Positions 26,762 to 64,000 of a stretch of DNA of 64,000 nt are shown one piece after another. The translations under genes were made by a program, and so were the position numbers. Origin of the DNA: a phage. The DNA is taken from sequence record PZ445447.1; one strand, written 5' to 3'. The notes under the pieces are model-generated. The model made no database searches and had not been told where the DNA came from. It was given only the letters and a program-made list of their open reading frames with translations. The stretch's first letter is position 1; each line of letters starts with the position of its first letter.

Positions 26762-26780
26762 TTTTTTAACTGAATTATCA

Positions 26781-26805
26781 AGGGGCTTAGGCCCCTTTCT
26801 TTTTG
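26781..26805 (+). terminator. rho-independent terminator
   Basis: AGGGGC-TTAG-GCCCCT then TTCTTTTTG. Confidence 0.7.
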
Positions 26806-26806
26806 T

Positions 26807-29273
26807 CTGCTCTTCCCCCTACCATAAACGGCCCTACCTGGCAAGTGGAATAATTGACGAGCCATCAATCCCACACACTGTACAAACATACATATAAAAT
26901 AACTATTGCATAATTTTTCATTGTGTGGTAGCAGGGCCATTTTTACACGTTTTTCCTTCCAAAATTGCACGTAATGCAGCATTTGCACAAAATTTAACCT
27001 GATGCATATATTCAATAGCTTGTCAACAACTAAAAATCTTTATAAGTCATACACTTACATAACTACAAAAGCGTTTTCTACGTGAAAAATCGAGTATAAC
27101 TATAGCCGCCAGATCTCAGAATTTACGTACGCTCGCCATTCTATAGCCTGCTAAGCATTTATTCCAACCATAGAATAACGGAATAGTCAATACCTGCATA
27201 AAATAATTATTCGTGTAAACTGCATAACATAAATCGGCCCAGGTGTCAACATTTTTCGTAAACAGTCTGGAATTGTCACGTTAGGTTACCATAAGCAGAG
27301 AAATCTTCAGTCGTCTAATGTTTACTGTACGTTACTATATTAACTGAAATCATTAGATGACTAATAGAAAGATAAGAAATAATTAACAATACAATTATTT
27401 TATCTGTAACAATAAGGCAACTATGCAAACGAATGGCATGGCGCGACGGAGTCGCGACATAATATAAAAGCAGTAACCATCACCCCCGTGATAGTTTGTC
27501 TGCAAACTATTAATCAGATCATAGTTGCCTTGTATTTAGTTAATCATGACATAACAAGCAAGGCAACTATAGATCTGCTAATAGTTGCCCTGCTTTTATA
27601 TTATGTCATGCTAATTATAATCAGTGCGATTATTGTCATGTATAATTATTGTCATGCAAACGAATGGCATGGCTGATTATCGGTGTGTAAACAGTCAATC
27701 ATGTAAATGGTTAGCATGTGAACAATCAGGAATGTAAACAATCCAGTGTGTAAACTAATAGGTGTGTAAAAGTGTCATGTTGTGTCAGTTAGGTCACATT
27801 ATGTCAGACAAGTTTTTCTCCTCTTTGTCAAGTGCTGCATGAAAAATTTACAAGCTTGTATGGTAGCATTTTTGCGGCCCTGTTTACATTCAGGAGTGTA
27901 TGTATAATCCTTGGTGTGTGGGCGTTTAGACGTCTGGACGGTAAGAAGTCTGCAGGTTAATATCTAATCTATCGGCTGCTAACTATATCCCACACAAATA
28001 GTAAGAAATATAATTGTTATGTGCGTAAACAGTAACCCATGTTATCAATCCCTGTATGTATCGCCAGTGGTGCGCATAATGGGTATTATGTTAAATTGCC
28101 CGTAATGATAAAGGTTCTCACAATGATAGGTATTCTCATTCACCCTCACAAAATAGATTGCAAATGTTGTGCCACTGTGTGAACGGCCTCACCTATTAAT
28201 TTGCCTCACTGCCTCGATATTTGAGAATTATTATAAGAATGAGAAGTATTCCCATTTCGTCCGCCTGGCAGCACTCCAGTCGCTACGGCTCATGACAGGG
28301 CAGCACTCCTGTAGGTCAGGTCAAAATCGTGGTAGAATTGGGCCTGTTCAGATATTTCTGGCTGACTCTTCAGGTCTGTGTGGGAAAAGCCAACCTCTCC
28401 GGCGGGGCAGGGGGTCATGACGGGAAAATTGCAGGTCAATTAAAAAATTTACGTGGTGTATGAAGCGCTCTTCAGGTAAGGCAGGTATTAGAGGATGAAA
28501 CCCTCTTCAGGCAATGATATTTGTGGGTGTGATATTTGCTGGAAAGCCAGATATGACGGGACTCCCGGCGGGGATGGGGTAGTACAGACAGGGAAAATAT
28601 GGGGATGTAGTTGGGTAAATTGATCAGGCAGGTAGAGTATGGATTATGTTACAGGTATGTTAAATATGGAGGTTGAATATCTGTAAGATTTGTGTGTAAA
28701 ATCAAAGACTTAAGTGGTGTTGTGGTATTTTCTATAAATAATTCAAGTTTAATAGGTAATATTTGTCTCTATCCACTTTGTGTGGTAAACAGATTCAGAT
28801 GAAATTGGTTTACAAGTGTATACATAATATACAAATTAAAGATACAAGAAACCCCCCTCCCCTTCGGCTACCATTCACCTTTTCCTCTGACTGGTACTTA
28901 AACACTTATTCAGACTCTTCAGGTTATCACCCATATATCATATGGCAGTGACTGGTGTCCTCCGGCCCCTCTTTCGTCACCCGTCCGCTTCGCCATGCTA
29001 ATGCCATAGCCAATGGTTCGGTTGTTCACCCTGTTCACTCAGGTGTATCTCCATACCCCTTCAAACCGAAGAGAACAGAAAACCCGAATTACTCGGTAAA
29101 AGAAAAGAGAAGAACTTAATTTTATCAAGATAGGCAAGAATGTCAAGGCATGACTGCTCACTAAACAAGCAAACAGTCATGTGTGGGAGGTAAGTGATTG
29201 TGGTTGTAGGAAATTTAGTTGAAAGATGTGTTATAGGTGCTTCCAGCACTTTAGCCGGGTAGCTAATTGTGTG
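26807..29273. other. large non-coding, repeat-rich region between convergent gene blocks (candidate origin, packaging or regulatory hub)
   Basis: No ORF with credible RBS; AT-rich; inverted repeats around 27425-27610 (ATAGTTGCC in alternating orientation); five TGTAAA(C) repeats 27680-27770; CTCTTCAGG four times 28366-28930. Confidence 0.5.
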
Positions 29274-43265: not shown

Positions 43266-44471
43266 TCAGCAACCACAACTTCCGTAGTGCTTAACCCGTT
43301 CTATAACTTCCGCTTGCTTACCTTTATTGTAAGGACGGGAGTTTGGACTAGACAGGTACCCGGATACACGTCTGATCACACTGATCGTTCCCTCTTCATG
43401 GTTTCCACACTCTGGGCATACGAATCCCTTAGCTGTTGCACTGAACTCACCAGAGAAACCACACTTAAGACATTTATCCACAGGCTGGTTGATACCAAAA
43501 TACATAATGTGTTTATATCCGAAATCAACAAGAGCTTCCAAAGCATCTAAGTTGTTTTTCAGATTTGGTGTCTCTACGTATCCGATGTTGCCACCAGAGG
43601 ATATCATAGCAAAACCTTCTTCATACTCCCACTTATCAAAAGGAGAGCTATTGATCCATACTGGCTGATGGAAACTGTTGGTGAGATATTCATGCTCGTG
43701 CTTCAACACTTCAGGATATTCACGATCCAGACAGGTTGCAGCTTTATAGCATAGACTCTCAGAAGGGGTGCCGTACAAACTAAACGCTAGTCTACTTTTC
43801 TTCTTGTATCGCTCACAAGCATCTCTCATGTGCTGAAGTATTCCAAGAGCTAAAGCCTTGTCACCCTCTCTGCCCAAAATCTGACAGGTTTCATACACAC
43901 CAATATACCCAATACTGATGGAAGCGTACCCGTCATAGAAGAGTTTATCAATACTCTCTTCAGGATCCAGGCGAGCAAGAGCGCCTTCACACCACATGAT
44001 AGGGTTCTGCCCTGCCTTAGTGCCTTTCAGACGGTTAACCCTTACAAGGTGAGCTTCATATGCCAAATCCAGATACTCGTCAAGAACGGAAAAGAAATCA
44101 ACACCTTCCGTCTTAGCTTTTGCCGCAATCATTGGCAGGTTAAGACTAACAACACCCAAGTTGAATCTGCCGAGGTATTTCTCCTCACCTGTTTCCAAGT
44201 CATTGTATTTGCTAAGAAAACTCCGGCAACCCATGCTCGTTACTTTACCATCTGTCGAGCCTGTCACTTTACGATTTAGTGGAACAGAAACAAAGTCAGG
44301 ATAAATCCGCTCTGCAGAGCATTCCAGAGCTAATCGTTTCAAATCATAGTTAGGATCTCCAGGGTTCATGTTGACACCCTCTTCTAGGAAGAACAACACT
44401 TTAGGGAACACAGGTGTGATACGTTCTTCACCAAGACCCATTTTGTGGACTTTCAAGTAGTTTTTGGTAAT
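43266..44471 (-). CDS. nrdD: anaerobic ribonucleoside-triphosphate reductase, exon 2 (C-terminal part)
   Basis: C-terminal CxxC pairs and glycyl-radical-like RVSGYL; exon start placed right after intron terminal G (inferred). Confidence 0.7.
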   Translation of the reverse strand: MTKNYLKVHKMGLGEERITPVFPKVLFFLEEGVNMNPGDPNYDLKRLALECSAERIYPDFVSVPLNRKVTGSTDGKVTSMGCRSFLSKYNDLETGEEKYLGRFNLGVVSLNLPMIAAKAKTEGVDFFSVLDEYLDLAYEAHLVRVNRLKGTKAGQNPIMWCEGALARLDPEESIDKLFYDGYASISIGYIGVYETCQILGREGDKALALGILQHMRDACERYKKKSRLAFSLYGTPSESLCYKAATCLDREYPEVLKHEHEYLTNSFHQPVWINSSPFDKWEYEEGFAMISSGGNIGYVETPNLKNNLDALEALVDFGYKHIMYFGINQPVDKCLKCGFSGEFSATAKGFVCPECGNHEEGTISVIRRVSGYLSSPNSRPYNKGKQAEVIERVKHYGSCGC

Positions 44472-45325
44472 CATTCTACCAAAGACTGAGGTGTCCAGAC
44501 CTAAACTTAATGTGATGAATGGAGTCTGCTGTCTCCTCCCTGTGTTTCCACAGGGCCAGACTATCTCTTACTCTACTTCAATAAGATAATAACCCTTTAT
44601 TGTGAGATGCTTACCTTCGGCATTTCCTTCGATAGCCCTATGAACGTTACCTACGTTCAAATTTAAGGCTTTTGCACAGGCATAGAGTGAAGGATATTCA
44701 CCCACCAAGGTTTTACCTTTGTATGCCTGCACTTTCCTATAGCACTTACCTGGACAAAGTCCTGTTCGGAAAGCATGTCTCTTATTATCTTCCGGCAAAA
44801 CCCACTCTAGGTTAGACGGATGATCATTCAATGTATTGCCATCTTTATGATTCACTTCCCAGTTTTCAGGGTCTACTGGGACATCTGGCAAACAATACAA
44901 GGCAACAACCCTTGAGGTTTGGATTCGAATCTTTTTGCCTTTGTGGTTGAAAGAGTACATATAACGGCGTTTAACATGCTTGTTACCTTTTCCATAACCT
45001 CCCCACAATATTGGGTGCAGCATTCCACGTTTTCCGTATACGTTTCCAACCTCATCAATCACATAGTTTGATTCTTCACCATTAAGAATGATCTTTTTCA
45101 TAGAGCCTCTCCATTTCGAAGTTAGCATTTCAACTAACCCCTACACTACTTGGTTCAGAAATGTTTGTCAAGCATCTCTGCCTTTCGTTAGTCGTTACAA
45201 CCGTTCCAACTCCTGTAAGAACTAGTCACGGGATTGGCATAGCTTTCGCCTTAGCGTTCCCCGTTAGCCGGATTTACCGACCCCTCTTATGAGGTTAGGA
45301 GAGTTTTACAACGGCCAGTTTGTTA
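44472..45325 (-). mobile_element. group I intron interrupting nrdD, carrying an HNH homing endonuclease ORF
   Basis: Begins UAA right after exon 1; contains AACGGGGAAC and CAAUCCCGUGACUA elements resembling the T4 td/nrdD intron core as I recall it; ends AAUG before exon 2. Confidence 0.7.
44568..45128 (-). CDS. HNH homing endonuclease (intron-encoded)
   Basis: NHKDGNTLNDHPSNLEWV HNH motif; same strand as nrdD. Confidence 0.8.
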   Translation of the reverse strand: MLTSKWRGSMKKIILNGEESNYVIDEVGNVYGKRGMLHPILWGGYGKGNKHVKRRYMYSFNHKGKKIRIQTSRVVALYCLPDVPVDPENWEVNHKDGNTLNDHPSNLEWVLPEDNKRHAFRTGLCPGKCYRKVQAYKGKTLVGEYPSLYACAKALNLNVGNVHRAIEGNAEGKHLTIKGYYLIEVE

Positions 45326-46186
45326 ACCGTTGACAGAAGTTAACGTATTGATTTGATAGAGCAAAGTCTGCATGCTGTCAAATACGTCTTTATCTGTCAT
45401 TTGCATTGCAACAGTCTCAGCATCTGGCAACCAATGTTCCTGGCAAAATTTAAGGTTCTTCTCATAGGTCGCTTCAGCATACTGTGCCAGATAATGATCA
45501 ATATGGCTCATAGTCTGACCACCATATTGAGCACTAGCTACTGCACTAGAGATTTGGCTAAGGATTGTTGTTGCAACCCCTATTGACTTCGGCTTACTGA
45601 CATGGGCGTTACCAATGTTGAATCCGTTTTCCAACATATCTGGATAATTTACCAAACAACAGTTTGTTAACGGACTGATCAAGTAGTCAAGATCATGCAC
45701 ATGGATGAAGCCCCTATTGTGCTCTTCTGAGACACGGTCTGGCAGGATCTGTGTTGATGCAAGGTGTTTGCTAAGGATGCCTGCAAGCAGGTCACGATGA
45801 GTGTGTACATGATTGGTAGGCTTATTTGCGTTTTCTTTTGTAAATTCATCACAAGTTCGATCCAAGAAGCCACTAATATCTGCAAGCAGTTTTCCACCTG
45901 CCTCTCTGTTATTATCTCTTGTCTGTCTATACTGGATGTATTCTCTGGCTGCACATTTTAAACCCATATCCATAAGAGCGTCTTCAACAAGGATATGGAT
46001 ATTTTTTACAGAGATCGTGCACTGATCGGTTGGTAGATTGTTAGCAACAACTTCATTAACCGCGCAGGCGATCCGGTAAGCTTCTTCTTCAGTATGTCCA
46101 GACTCAAGTAAGGCGGACTCTGCCGCCTTGATCACCTTAATTCCGTTATAGAACTCTTCTCTACCGTCCCGTTTTACAACTTTCAC
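45326..46186 (-). CDS. nrdD: anaerobic ribonucleoside-triphosphate reductase, exon 1 (N-terminal part)
   Basis: ATP-cone-like N-terminus MKVVKRDGREEFYNGIKV; ORF ends ...TSVNG with stop at intron start. Confidence 0.7.
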
Positions 46187-60389: not shown

Positions 60390-61673
60390 TCATTCAAGCA
60401 CCTCCCAAGTGTCTGGGTTAACATTTCGGACGCAGATACCGACAGGGAATTGGTAGTTGTTGTCTTCTGTCCTTGCTTGGTATTTGAAGGTGACAAACTT
60501 GCCGATCATTTCCTGCATCCTGTCATAGCTACGCTCCTCGTGCGTGCCTTTCATCTTCATTTTAACAACAACACCTTCCTTGTCAACACAGATAAGAACA
60601 CCTTCATCATTCTTATCTTTCTCAACGTCAATAACTTTCACCTCTGCGTCGTTGAACTTTTTCCATTTCAATGCTTCAGATGTTCGCTGACCATACTCAT
60701 ATTTACCGCAGAAATTACGCATGATAGTACCTTCATATCCTTCGGACATGAATATACCAACAGATTCTTCGCAATGATCAACTGTGTACGCAAGCTCCGC
60801 GTCAACAACCTTGATATGATCAAGCATCAGAGTGGTAACGGTATCCTCTGCATCCATAAGATCCTTGCAGCGTCCAGACTCTGTTTCTGGATCCCACCAC
60901 ACCTTGTCGCTAGGAATATCAAAAATGTGATACTCCAGATCGTAGCTACAGTATCCACCGTAACGCAAATCATCACGAACAGGCTCAACATCGACAGGAA
61001 TATCTACCTTGTTGAAGTTTTTGTATGTTGATAAGCCTGCCTTAATTGCTGCATGACGGCGTTTTTTATCTGCCTCATAGTCTTTATCGATCTCGGCCTG
61101 AATCTCTTCCTGTGTGCGCCACCGTTTAGCAAGAGACACTATTTTCTGCAAAGGAAGACCATGAATGTATAGTTCCCCATCAAGTTGTTTAATCCCAGTG
61201 GTAGAATGGAAAGAACGAAGTTGCTCTAAAAGCTTTCCTTGAATAGGGTAGGACTTATTACCACGGGAAATAAATTTAGGCTCACCATTTTGGAAAACAA
61301 CAAGCAGACGAAGGCCATCTAACTTACGCAAGATCCAGCAAGGTAATTTAAGTGCCTTGCCACGCTTCAGGTAGTCATGCACCAGCATAGGTAAAAGATC
61401 AACACCCTGCTCGCAATCTTCCATGTTTTCAACATACCCCAGACGGACTTGTTTTTCCCACTTGCTGATAGCCTCAAGCTCGGCCTGTTGCTCAGCTGTA
61501 GTCTCGTTGGCACGACCTACGTTTTTAGGTGTACATACCGTCTCTTTGTACTGCAATTTACCGTCAAGCTTGCCAAACTCTACGATAACCTTTTCGCCAT
61601 CAGTGAATACTTTCCACTGTTGGTAGCTGCCATCTTTGTTCAGTGCGTACAGTGTTGTTTTGATTTGATGCAT
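60390..61673 (-). CDS. ATP-dependent DNA ligase
   Basis: Nucleotidyltransferase motif I KLDGLR; 427 aa. Confidence 0.7.
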   Translation of the reverse strand: MHQIKTTLYALNKDGSYQQWKVFTDGEKVIVEFGKLDGKLQYKETVCTPKNVGRANETTAEQQAELEAISKWEKQVRLGYVENMEDCEQGVDLLPMLVHDYLKRGKALKLPCWILRKLDGLRLLVVFQNGEPKFISRGNKSYPIQGKLLEQLRSFHSTTGIKQLDGELYIHGLPLQKIVSLAKRWRTQEEIQAEIDKDYEADKKRRHAAIKAGLSTYKNFNKVDIPVDVEPVRDDLRYGGYCSYDLEYHIFDIPSDKVWWDPETESGRCKDLMDAEDTVTTLMLDHIKVVDAELAYTVDHCEESVGIFMSEGYEGTIMRNFCGKYEYGQRTSEALKWKKFNDAEVKVIDVEKDKNDEGVLICVDKEGVVVKMKMKGTHEERSYDRMQEMIGKFVTFKYQARTEDNNYQFPVGICVRNVNPDTWEVLE

Positions 61674-61942
61674 TACTCGGCCTCTTCCTTAAAAATTTTA
61701 AACATCTCTTCTTTACTCATTACCAACCAGTCTCCCATAAAGTCAACTAACCAATCTCCCTGGTACAAAACCAAGTTGCCAAACGGCTCAACAAGCTCAC
61801 ACATGCGACGAATATCTCTGGTCCGAACAGGTGACGATGTAAACACACCTGTATCAATCCACCGTTGCAGATCAGATACTGATGAAGAGCTTCCATCAAA
61901 CTGGTGTGCTTCTACAGGTTTAGCAAGATTAAATAACGGCAT
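61673..61942 (-). CDS. hypothetical protein
   Basis: ORF track; 89 aa. Confidence 0.5.
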   Translation of the reverse strand: MPLFNLAKPVEAHQFDGSSSSVSDLQRWIDTGVFTSSPVRTRDIRRMCELVEPFGNLVLYQGDWLVDFMGDWLVMSKEEMFKIFKEEAE

Positions 61943-62237
61943 TGCAGTCCTCCTTCTGTAGTAGGTCTTTTATAGGATAAACAAGTAAGTGTGGATCGGA
62001 ATAACGTATAGTCCTATTCTGCCACACTATGAACTTTATTACAACCAAATTTACAATATCTTTATCACCATGTAGCCCAACACACACATTTGTCCATATT
62101 TTGTGGTTGAAGATCTTGCTATCGATGTAGATTTTAGTGTCAAACTTATCTTCCATTCTACCTATAAGTTTGATCAGCTCCTTCATCTGGTCGCCAAACA
62201 CAGCATCTTTTTCAAGATCTCTGGAATGCTTGTACAT
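61929..62237 (-). CDS. hypothetical protein
   Basis: ORF track; 102 aa. Confidence 0.5.
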   Translation of the reverse strand: MYKHSRDLEKDAVFGDQMKELIKLIGRMEDKFDTKIYIDSKIFNHKIWTNVCVGLHGDKDIVNLVVIKFIVWQNRTIRYSDPHLLVYPIKDLLQKEDCNAVI

Positions 62238-62299
62238 AACTAACTACCTCACTGCATACTTTCCATAATAAGTAAAGCCGGGTAATCCCGGCTATGTTG

Positions 62300-63013
62300 T
62301 TAAATATACTCTGTTACATCCTTGAAGCTCGAAGGCTTCATAATCTTACCTTTACTGTCAAGGAATATAATAACTTTATTACCGTTGTAGAACTCCTCTT
62401 TAGCAACGAAACCTTCGTAGCGACCACCAAAACGACGCTCAAGATCTTCAATCTCTAACTCTATGAGCAATTCAGTAGACATATCTGCACTGGCACCGTG
62501 AGAATATCGTAGATGGTTGATCCGTGCAAACTTGCTGTCATTAGATTTGAGAACCTTCCGCATCATCCCACACACATCGCCGCGAAGCTGGAACAGCAAA
62601 GCTGTTGACAACTCCGCTAAGCGGTAAGCTGACGCTCTTTGCTTGGATGTGTTTTTCGCAGCGATCAGTGTATCATAGAACTCACCGATCTTGAACTTAA
62701 GACCTCGTGGATTATCAAACAGGTTTGACCACTTTTCGTGATTATCATTAACAAGATAAGCGGCATAACTTGTGACAACGTGAAGATCGCAGGCCTCTTT
62801 TAGCAGGTGATCTCCACCATCACCTTTCTCCAGCTCTTCCAAAACCTCATTGAACTCTTCCTCAATGAAGCTAAGCTGTAATTCGAATGGTGTGTATGAT
62901 TTTTTCACTTTAGCTGCCACACGGTTCCAGTTTTCCACCCAGTTGGCAGACCAAAGGTAGTTTTCAGGCTGAGACAGTTTTTCCAGGTTGTCGATCAGTT
63001 TAGTATTCAGCAT
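62300..63013 (-). CDS. hypothetical protein
   Basis: 237 aa; EE-rich helical N-terminal segment; no confident family. Confidence 0.55.
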   Translation of the reverse strand: MLNTKLIDNLEKLSQPENYLWSANWVENWNRVAAKVKKSYTPFELQLSFIEEEFNEVLEELEKGDGGDHLLKEACDLHVVTSYAAYLVNDNHEKWSNLFDNPRGLKFKIGEFYDTLIAAKNTSKQRASAYRLAELSTALLFQLRGDVCGMMRKVLKSNDSKFARINHLRYSHGASADMSTELLIELEIEDLERRFGGRYEGFVAKEEFYNGNKVIIFLDSKGKIMKPSSFKDVTEYI

Positions 63014-63026
63014 TAAAGGTCTCCTT

Positions 63027-63788
63027 TTAAAGTTCCATAAAGTTTTCTACGGTCTCAATGAATGTTTTATCAGAGAAAGCGTCAACCGCCCCGTTAAACC
63101 AAACCGGGATGCCGCGATCCTCGTACTGGTAAATATCACTACGTGAAATGCCATTCTCCTCTAGATGCTGTGAGTCGTATTTGTTAACGATCAGCAGTTT
63201 GGTGCCCTTATTGCAGGCAGGGAATAGCTCCCAGTTAAAATTGATAACTGTGTTGGAACACCCTACAAGGATAACCATATCATTGCTTGTAAGAGAAGTC
63301 AACAGGTCATACATGTCTGTATACTTCGGAGCTACTTCTCCGAAGAACACCACATTAGGTTTAACCCAGGTATACTTTCCTGCATCTACCTCAGAGTATC
63401 CAATGTCCTTAATGACGTCACTTCCTTCATCGTCCTCATAGACTATTTCTGGCAAATACCCGTGAACATGTAAAATATCTTCATGTTTTACACCAGCACG
63501 CTCCAGCAAATCATCTACATTGGTGGTAAGGTTGATCACACGACCAGACCAGCGGGAATACCACTCAGCGATCCGAAGATGTGCAAGGTTAGGCTCAACA
63601 CCGCCTAGAGCTACACGACGTGCATTGTAAAAGTCATGCACCTTGTAGTAGTTCTTGGCAAAGGTGTGGATGTTGCACACCTCATCGATGCTGAAATTCT
63701 CCCACATTGCAGTGCTACCAGATCGGAAAGTGGGAATACCAGATTCAGCGCTCAAACCAGCACCGGAGATAATAATCAGTCGTCGCAT
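63027..63788 (-). CDS. SIR2-family (sirtuin-like) protein lacking zinc ribbon
   Basis: GAGLSAESGIPTFRSG, TTNVDDL, catalytic-His HVHG, VVFFGE; no CxxC pairs. Confidence 0.75.
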   Translation of the reverse strand: MRRLIIISGAGLSAESGIPTFRSGSTAMWENFSIDEVCNIHTFAKNYYKVHDFYNARRVALGGVEPNLAHLRIAEWYSRWSGRVINLTTNVDDLLERAGVKHEDILHVHGYLPEIVYEDDEGSDVIKDIGYSEVDAGKYTWVKPNVVFFGEVAPKYTDMYDLLTSLTSNDMVILVGCSNTVINFNWELFPACNKGTKLLIVNKYDSQHLEENGISRSDIYQYEDRGIPVWFNGAVDAFSDKTFIETVENFMEL

Positions 63789-63796
63789 AAGTGTCC

Positions 63797-64000
63797 TCAG
63801 TAGATGTTTTGTTTAATCTCTATTCCAAACTTTTTAAACGAGTCAGCTGCAAGCATGAATTTACGAGCCGCTGATGGGTTAGAAGTATGCACGAAAATCT
63901 TCACGTTGTCAACTACAGGGGGCTCACCAAATACAAATTTTTCCTCCAACATAGATAGGCAATCGTACCCTTCGAACAACTCTCCAAGGTCGTTGTCCAT
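63797..64000 (-). CDS. hypothetical protein (ATG at window edge; may be complete or 5'-truncated)
   Basis: Open frame reaches the last base of the window. Confidence 0.35.
   Translation of the reverse strand: MDNDLGELFEGYDCLSMLEEKFVFGEPPVVDNVKIFVHTSNPSAARKFMLAADSFKKFGIEIKQNIY

Follow-up and report, generated by a model that had tools for sequence, protein, structure and literature searches.

A CobB-Like Phage Sirtuin without Zinc Ligands, Encoded in a Predicted RNA Repair Cassette, as a Possible NAD+-Dependent Enzyme of tRNA Repair

Introduction

Phage sequence record PZ445447.1, of which a stretch of 64,000 nucleotides (nt) was analyzed (hereafter the window), encodes near the window end, at positions 63027..63788 on the minus strand, a protein of the SIR2 (sirtuin) family whose neighbors are predicted to process and seal RNA ends. 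We propose, at a probability of about 0.4, that this sirtuin is an NAD+-dependent enzyme in the repair of RNA (tRNA) breaks and, most specifically, that it removes 2'-phosphates. The proposal draws on an intact sirtuin active site and on linkage between the sirtuin and repair genes that recurs across phages.

The gene itself, the loss of zinc ligands (2016) and the gene neighborhood (2022) are already covered by publications and GenBank annotation. Skliros et al. (2016; PMC5107563) described the same zinc loss in the homologues of phages KVP40 and phiSt2, proposed salt bridges in its place, and suggested that phage Sir2/CobB deacetylates host proteins, e.g., acetyl-CoA synthetase. Iyer, Burroughs, Anantharaman, and Aravind (Viruses 2022, PMC9503650, section 3.7.3) described a neighborhood exactly as found here. 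Their type 2 combines the sirtuin with a T4-like RNA ligase, a cREC (cyclic-phosphate-processing receiver) domain protein, a nucleotide kinase, a pyrophosphatase of the MazG family, and a calcineurin-like phosphoesterase, has no macrodomain, and occurs in Escherichia phage V5 and Proteus phage Mydo; the present locus differs from it in nothing substantive. The same authors, who had defined cREC in a 2021 paper on jumbo phages (PMC7824862), also described a T5/SP15 type with a “Swiss Army knife” HAD phosphatase and proposed, as a prediction only, that the sirtuin removes RNA 2'-phosphates in the manner of KptA. Our literature searches found no biochemical or genetic test of either proposal and, for phage sirtuins, returned comparative-genomic or modeling papers only.

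A sirtuin gene with an intact active site

The open reading frame (ORF) at 63027..63788 is a genuine SIR2-family gene. It begins with an ATG preceded 6 nt upstream by the Shine-Dalgarno sequence GAGGA and encodes a single-domain protein of 253 amino acids (aa), of which residues 9 to 181 match Pfam SIR2 (PF02146; E = 5.5e-27, 95.3 bits against a cutoff of 24) and which also matches PHROG 2162, “Sir2” (E = 3e-109). Positions 61600 to 64000 of the window are 100% identical to Escherichia phage MaxBurger (BASEL Bas54, an rV5-like Vequintavirus; MZ501093), where the gene is bas54_0207, annotated “sirtuin domain NAD-dependent deacetylase.” The protein is small, looks soluble, and is found in well-studied model phages (T5, rV5, and the BASEL collection).

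The first-pass annotation of this stretch, made from the letters alone, had reported the core sirtuin motifs and the catalytic histidine, and both were recovered by a motif script, by alignment to CobB and SIRT5, and by the Pfam match. The script located GAGLS (residues 9 to 13), GIPTFR (17 to 22), FYNARR (53 to 58), TTNVD (88 to 92), HG (109 to 110), FGE (149 to 151), and GCS (176 to 178), and His109 aligns with the catalytic histidine of Escherichia coli CobB and of SIRT5. Conservation of the histidine and of the NAD-binding residues, on which the annotation had staked its case, was borne out in these alignments and in 56 homologues of 50 to 98% identity, in which S16, G17, F21, R22, N90, D92, H109, G110, F149, E151, S178, and N202 are invariant. 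One departure in the NAD pocket is T89, which stands where glutamine is usual (TTNVD versus TQN[I/V]D). The AlphaFold2 model is confident (predicted local distance difference test score [pLDDT], 90.3; predicted template modeling score, 0.89) and consists of a Rossmann domain and a small domain.

Placement among the sirtuin classes

By score ranking and fold, rather than by a tree, the protein is a virus-specific, zinc-ligand-less offshoot of the CobB-like (class III) sirtuins, closer to these than to classes I, II, IV, and U. CobB, SIRT5, and Sir2Af1/2 led a single-sequence search of the PDB (~74 to 78 bits), followed by Sir2Tm (54), SIRT2 (48), and SIRT3 (41); a profile of the phage clade scored CobB at 105.7 bits, Sir2Af2 at 86.7, Sir2Af1 at 84.6, SIRT5 at 75, Sir2Tm at 61, SIRT2 at 45, and SIRT1 at 41. 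With the model as the query, Foldseek placed CobB at the top (E = 1.8e-18; template modeling [TM] scores, 0.75/0.84) and then Sir2Af1 and SIRT5, the E values for these three ranging from 1e-18 to 1e-14.

The phage protein shares with E. coli CobB (PDB 1S5P and 6RXJ) its fold and the GAGxSxxSGIxTFR, FYNARR, xNxD, catalytic HG, and FGE loop elements. It differs from CobB in lacking the four zinc cysteines, in being encoded by a virus, in its longer C-terminal region, and in reading TTN and GCSNTVINF where CobB reads TQN and GTSGHVYPA. The YxxR motif of class III is present (F53-Y54-N-A-R57-R58, aligned to FYNARR of CobB), and both Y54 and R57 are invariant in the same 56 homologues. In class III sirtuins, the tyrosine and arginine of this motif bind the carboxylate of anionic acyl groups. 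The protein is nonetheless no standard CobB, as it misses the NCBIfam cutoffs for CobB/NAD-dependent deacylase (NF001753, 122.4 versus 243; NF040867, 102.7 versus 320). Over 184 aa it is 32% identical to the CobB of the host, and this, together with the wide occurrence of the clade in phages, led us to reject a recent capture of the host cobB gene.

Score ranking and fold also set the protein outside the NADase-type SIR2 families. It resembles the defense SIR2 NADases (ThsA, DSR1/2, SIR2-HerA, and SIR2-APAZ) in having a SIR2 Rossmann core without a Cys4 zinc ribbon; unlike them, it has no sensor or partner domain and belongs to a lytic phage and not to a host defense island, and neither profile matches nor fold rank join it to them. 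There was no match to Pfam SIR2_2, the only match to PADLOC defense models was at chance level (PDC-S65, E = 0.011), and no defense SIR2 stood among the top 50 Foldseek matches of the model. On these results, a defense-type NADase was rejected. The proline of the VxP peptide staple, considered as a marker of peptide versus RNA substrates, varies in zinc-bearing and zinc-less relatives alike and is uninformative.

Loss of the zinc ligands

C38, C177, and C192 are the only cysteines of the protein, so that CxxC pairs are absent, as had been noted from the sequence; CxxC was likewise found in none of the 120 closest database homologues. The homologues T5.102 of phage T5 (58% identity) and Sir2/CobB of KVP40/phiSt2 (~43%) have lost their zinc ligands as well. 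A wider survey, in which ~15 billion proteins were searched and one representative was kept per 50%-identity cluster, yielded 5594 relatives at E <= 1e-3, of which 76 reached E <= 1e-30. Zinc ligands were counted in the 147 of the best 150 cluster representatives in which His109 and F149 are aligned: 95 have at least three cysteines, typically as CxxC...CxxC, between His109 and the FGE loop, and 47 have one at most. The closest relatives of the query are zinc-less throughout. Zinc-bearing proteins that carry the same signature (W29, EVC38, and FGExAPxY) appear from ~50% identity and are the majority below ~45%, and because these relatives, at 40 to 50% identity, share the signature, we regard the loss of zinc as a late change within a CobB-like lineage and not as a mark of membership in an NADase family. 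Threonine in place of the glutamine of TQN(I/V)D is found in 34 of the 47 zinc-less representatives versus 10 of the 95 zinc-bearing ones.

The segment from His109 to the FGE loop is of similar length in the two groups (~43 aa zinc-less versus ~46 aa zinc-bearing). In pairwise alignment, the first CxxC site reads YEDD in the phage sirtuin and the second knuckle is ~6 residues shorter, and the AlphaFold2 model has strands at 110 to 118, 124 to 128, and 142 to 146 at the site of the ribbon (pLDDT, ~95). As modeled, then, the zinc beta-ribbon persists and only its cysteine ligands are lost, the module not having been deleted. The description of this protein as a sirtuin without the zinc-binding module thus holds for the ligands and fails for the ribbon. 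Zinc is structural in sirtuins, not catalytic.

From the missing cysteines the first-pass annotation had gone on to an enzyme of the NAD-consuming or ADP-ribosylating type, a step that the present results do not support: the match is to PF02146 and not to SIR2_2, no PADLOC defense model fits, the best matches are deacylases, YxxR is kept, and zinc-bearing relatives share the signature. Placement among the sirtuin classes led to class III and gave no NADase-type assignment, and nothing at the locus points to the manipulation of NAD pools that had also been suggested.

Distribution and linkage across phages

Relatives of the sirtuin were detected by tblastn in 976 of 50,697 phage records, mostly annotated as Sir2-like, from T5-like, rV5-like, Mydo-like, Stephanstirmvirinae, KVP40-like, and jumbo phages. 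In a motif-based scan of 185,579 prokaryotic species, each represented by one genome, only 2 loci were recovered, one of them in a metagenome-assembled genome on a 43-kb contig of co-directional genes. Judged from these searches, the clade appears to be essentially viral. Among the phage records, 18-25 that are named “Campylobacter phage” (host Campylobacter jejuni; MG065652, MG065672, MG065645, and others) are 93 to 96% identical to the rV5-like phage region, and further “Campylobacter phage” records match phi92-like phages; the stated host seems questionable.

Linkage was studied in 78 viral loci encoding relatives, equivalent to 31 sirtuin lineages at 85% identity. In the rV5- and Mydo-like phages, which account for 8 lineages at 43 to 95% identity to the query, the repair genes (RNA ligase [Rnl], cREC, kinase [PNK], phosphoesterase [PE], MazG-like, and ATP-dependent DNA ligase) remain with the sirtuin in rearranged order. 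The Mydo-like order is PE..Rnl-cREC-PNK-SIR2-DNA ligase..MazG, in which the sirtuin stop codon overlaps the start of the DNA ligase gene by 1 nt. On the unrelated backbone of the T5-like phages, T5.105 is encoded 320 nt downstream of sirtuin T5.102, a pairing seen in 28 loci, and is a member of Pfam HAD_SAK_2, “HAD domain in Swiss Army Knife RNA repair proteins” (E = 4e-20). T5.102 departs from the present locus in that this phosphatase is near it but no ligase, kinase, or cREC is. The association of the sirtuin with repair genes is therefore recurrent on two backbones and present at the level of the genome in a third, that of the Stephanstirmvirinae-type phages, and it is not obligate.

Several observations were made along the way on the genes beside these sirtuins. 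The RefSeq product of T5.105 (locus L080, 7589-8095) and PHROG 18062 are labeled “Sir2 (NAD-dependent deacetylase)” despite the HAD_SAK_2 match, and the label looks like a carry-over from the neighboring T5.102. In the ~150-kb phages and KVP40, the only sirtuin neighbors recognized by Pfam are DUF7275/7277, metallophosphoesterase, and topoisomerase proteins, which speak neither for nor against a link to RNA repair. KVP40-like phages (L063, 5099-5860) and the unrelated ~150-kb phages (L033, 4712-5716) alike encode a DUF7275/DUF7277 protein 2 to 3 kb upstream of the sirtuin. At its start, the sirtuin gene of phage JohannJBalmer overlaps an upstream ORF of 184 aa annotated “putative aminoacyl-tRNA synthetase” (L100, 4459-5013); a paralogue of this ORF lies 3.4 kb upstream (L100, 1013-1585) with a metallophosphoesterase gene between them, and neither paralogue has a significant Pfam match.

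A possible NAD+-dependent step in RNA repair

Phage-encoded healing and sealing of RNA ends as a counter to anticodon nucleases is established for Pnkp and Rnl1 of T4, and by its predicted gene products the present locus would be a cassette of this kind. We infer the RNA substrate and every chemical step of the following scheme. A host anticodon nuclease would leave 2',3'-cyclic phosphate and 5'-OH ends, of which the cyclic phosphate would be opened by cREC or the phosphoesterase and the 5' end phosphorylated by the kinase before the ligase seals the break. The sirtuin would then act like Tpt1/KptA and use NAD+ to strip the residual 2'-phosphate, whose oxygen would attack C1'' of NAD+ and expel nicotinamide. 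The ADP-ribose by-product might be cleared by cREC and the MazG-like pyrophosphatase, paralleling the Nudix-cREC fusions of jumbo phages. Both those fusions and the proposed mechanism follow Iyer et al. (PMC9503650).

The mechanism would make the sirtuin a functional analogue of Tpt1/KptA, which acts downstream of a cyclic phosphodiesterase, a kinase, and a ligase. The relation is one of analogy: Tpt1/KptA has a fold of the ADP-ribosyltransferase (ART) type without sequence or structural similarity to the sirtuin, for which Pfam returned SIR2 only and the fold search sirtuins only. In the sirtuin mechanism, the acyl oxygen attacks C1'', and the 2'-OH, activated by the histidine, then gives a 1',2'-cyclic intermediate. 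As set out in PMC11417386, the sirtuin and Tpt1 reactions run parallel, with attack on C1'' followed by attack of the 2''-OH to give a 1'',2''-cyclic species, and removal of a 2'-phosphate by a sirtuin is for this reason chemically plausible. By analogy with its role toward acyl carboxylates, the anion-binding pair Y54/R57 could equally hold a phosphate. The fuller claim, that the protein is an RNA 2'-phosphotransferase convergent with Tpt1/KptA and acts with cREC and the MazG-like protein to counter host anticodon nucleases, is the more doubtful one, and we consider it rather unlikely as a whole. If a role in RNA repair is correct, the chemistry of sirtuins reaches beyond protein lysines to the phosphates of RNA, and phages have a second, convergent way of removing 2'-phosphates, with a bearing on escape from tRNA-cleaving defenses. 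A sirtuin 2'-phosphotransferase would be the first demonstrated case of a sirtuin acting on nucleic acid; with the idea in print as a prediction since 2022, the novelty would lie in the demonstration.

A number of points weigh against an RNA substrate. We know of no biochemical evidence of any sirtuin acting on RNA, and the closest characterized relatives of this one are all protein lysine deacylases. The narrow acyl-lysine tunnel, a poor fit for a nucleotide 2'-phosphate, may be retained, since the model superposes on CobB at TM scores of 0.75 to 0.84. Healing of the T4 type by a kinase and a phosphatase (here the metallophosphoesterase) leaves no 2'-phosphate, and E. coli has a KptA of its own. 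The linkage has gaps: in Stephanstirmvirinae-type phages of ~150 kb, the cassette cREC-PE-Rnl-PNK-DNA ligase-MazG does not include the sirtuin (L089, L091, and L092), which is encoded ~31 to 33 kb away on the same contig (L035, L034, and L032); no recognizable repair gene adjoins the sirtuin in KVP40-like phages; and in three sirtuin-less loci (L093, L095, and L096) neither KptA/Tpt1 nor any other informative Pfam match was found beside cREC. Adjacency is in any case weaker evidence than it is in bacteria, because the early nucleic-acid-metabolism genes of phages cluster anyway.

Nearly as likely as a role in RNA repair is that of an ordinary CobB-like lysine deacylase, a deacetylase or, given the YxxR motif, a desuccinylase or demalonylase, which would be a phage tool for resetting the acylation of host or phage proteins. 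The best sequence, profile, and fold matches, to CobB (105.7 bits; TM, 0.75/0.84), Sir2Af1/2, and SIRT5, all argue for a deacylase, as do the invariant catalytic histidine, FGE loop, NAD pocket, and YxxR motif, the structural role of zinc in sirtuins generally, and the predicted persistence of the ribbon. The separation of the sirtuin from the repair cassette in some phages points the same way, and Skliros et al., who modeled the zinc-less KVP40-type protein, argued that deacetylase function is retained (PMC5107563). The 1-nt overlap with the DNA ligase gene in Mydo-like phages may also be counted for a deacylase. One variant would have the sirtuin keep the catalytic lysine of the adjacent adenylate-forming RNA and DNA ligases acyl-free, by analogy with the reactivation of acetyl-CoA synthetase by CobB. 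A deacylase is harder to square with scores far under the NCBIfam CobB cutoffs (122 versus 243 and 103 versus 320) and only 32% identity to a CobB that the host already supplies, with a clade that is virus-specific, with the recurrence of the sirtuin beside RNA-end-processing enzymes on two unrelated phage backbones, and with a neighborhood that encodes no acyltransferase or obvious protein target.

Two further readings are much less probable. That the protein is a zinc-less NADase or protein ADP-ribosyltransferase, which would deplete or redirect host NAD or modify host proteins, has in its favor the missing zinc ligands, a feature of the defense SIR2 NADases, and the threonine for glutamine in the NAD pocket, with its bias toward zinc-less representatives (34/47 versus 10/95); some sirtuins do ADP-ribosylate proteins (PMC9503650). 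We judge it improbable, given the failure of PADLOC defense SIR2 models, Pfam SIR2_2, and the top 50 folds to connect the protein with such enzymes. In contrast to the macrodomain-linked ADP-ribosylating sirtuins of the SirTM type, it has no adjacent macrodomain gene; Pfam matches and annotations gave no macrodomain within ~9 kb, and no fused or adjacent SLOG, HerA, Argonaute/APAZ, or TIR partner was found among the neighbors. NAD depletion would moreover be to the disadvantage of a lytic phage, and phages are known to restore NAD instead of destroying it (PMC13464706). Slightly less probable again is action on some other RNA, whether NAD-capped or ADP-ribosylated RNA or aminoacyl-tRNA N-acylated by a GNAT toxin, in place of a 2'-phosphate. 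Linkage to RNA repair and tRNA genes would suit such a substrate, as would the co-encoded cREC and pyrophosphatase, which are predicted to process ADP-ribose derivatives (PMC9503650, PMC7824862), but this is pure inference, no result singles out any one of these species, and there is no precedent for a sirtuin acting on them.

Neighboring genes at the locus

The genes flanking the sirtuin had been described as being of unknown function and as potential partners. Both can be identified, and they are plausible partners in RNA repair, as are the RNA ligase, polynucleotide kinase, and phosphoesterase encoded just past the window end. The ORF at the window edge (63797..64000, minus strand) encodes the last 67 aa of a cREC protein of 116 aa, whose gene extends to the window-equivalent position 64147. 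It matches PF20274 at E = 2.6e-6 as a fragment and at E = 9.8e-15 as the full protein, with the Asp/acidic, Thr/Ser, and Lys positions of receiver domains conserved, and its stop codon precedes the start of the sirtuin gene by 8 nt. Upstream of cREC, and overlapping it by 4 nt beyond the window end, is the gene for an RNA ligase of the T4 Rnl1 type (PF09511).

On the other side, starting 13 nt downstream of the sirtuin stop codon, a MazG-like (all-alpha NTP pyrophosphohydrolase-like) protein of 237 aa is encoded at 62300..63013 on the minus strand. It matches PHROG 671, “nucleotide pyrophosphohydrolase” (E = 5.7e-22), conserves an EExxE...D motif, and has a weak Pfam match to PRA-PH (E = 0.089), PF01503 being precomputed for 3 of 16 homologues. 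A sequence search of the PDB found nothing. Its model is a helical bundle (pLDDT, 73) for which the top Foldseek matches are dimeric dUTPases at a nonsignificant level (probability, 0.84; E, ~1), a result consistent with an all-alpha NTP pyrophosphatase.

The spacers in the series RNA ligase, cREC, sirtuin, and MazG-like are thus -4, 8, and 13 nt. Directly after the MazG-like stop codon, at 62276..62293 on the minus strand, is a GC-rich, terminator-like hairpin, AGCCGGGATTACCCGGCT, with a T-rich tail, and in the related phage EdH4 a “terminator” is annotated in the same stretch; the hairpin is likely the 3' end of an RNA ligase-cREC-sirtuin-MazG unit. A scan for sigma-70 promoters found none that was convincing upstream of the RNA ligase gene. 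Divergent genes past the window end encode a P-loop polynucleotide kinase, a calcineurin-like phosphoesterase (Metallophos), a helix-turn-helix protein, and six tRNAs. Farther downstream on the minus strand, an ATP-dependent DNA ligase gene (60390..61673) accompanies the cassette in 9 sirtuin lineages, and its membership in the functional unit is uncertain. Between it and the MazG-like gene, at 61673..62237 on the same strand, are two small ORFs of 89 and 102 aa (PHROGs 14585 and 7684), members of which travel with the repair cassette in ~6 to 7 sirtuin lineages.

Other features of the window

A stretch of ~2.5 kb at 26762-29273, in which MZ501093 has no annotated gene and ORFs do not exceed 101 aa, is where convergent plus-strand and minus-strand gene blocks both end. 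No tRNA was found in it, nor any Rfam match at E < 0.1. It contains scattered short repeats, among them four copies of a GTGTGTAAAC-type motif, and a perfect inverted repeat of 18 nt (27456-27473 and 27590-27607). At ~43266-45973, the annotation gives nrdD, the gene for anaerobic ribonucleotide reductase, as two pieces joined together, and the gap between them is an intron-type insertion, since a homing-endonuclease ORF lies within it.

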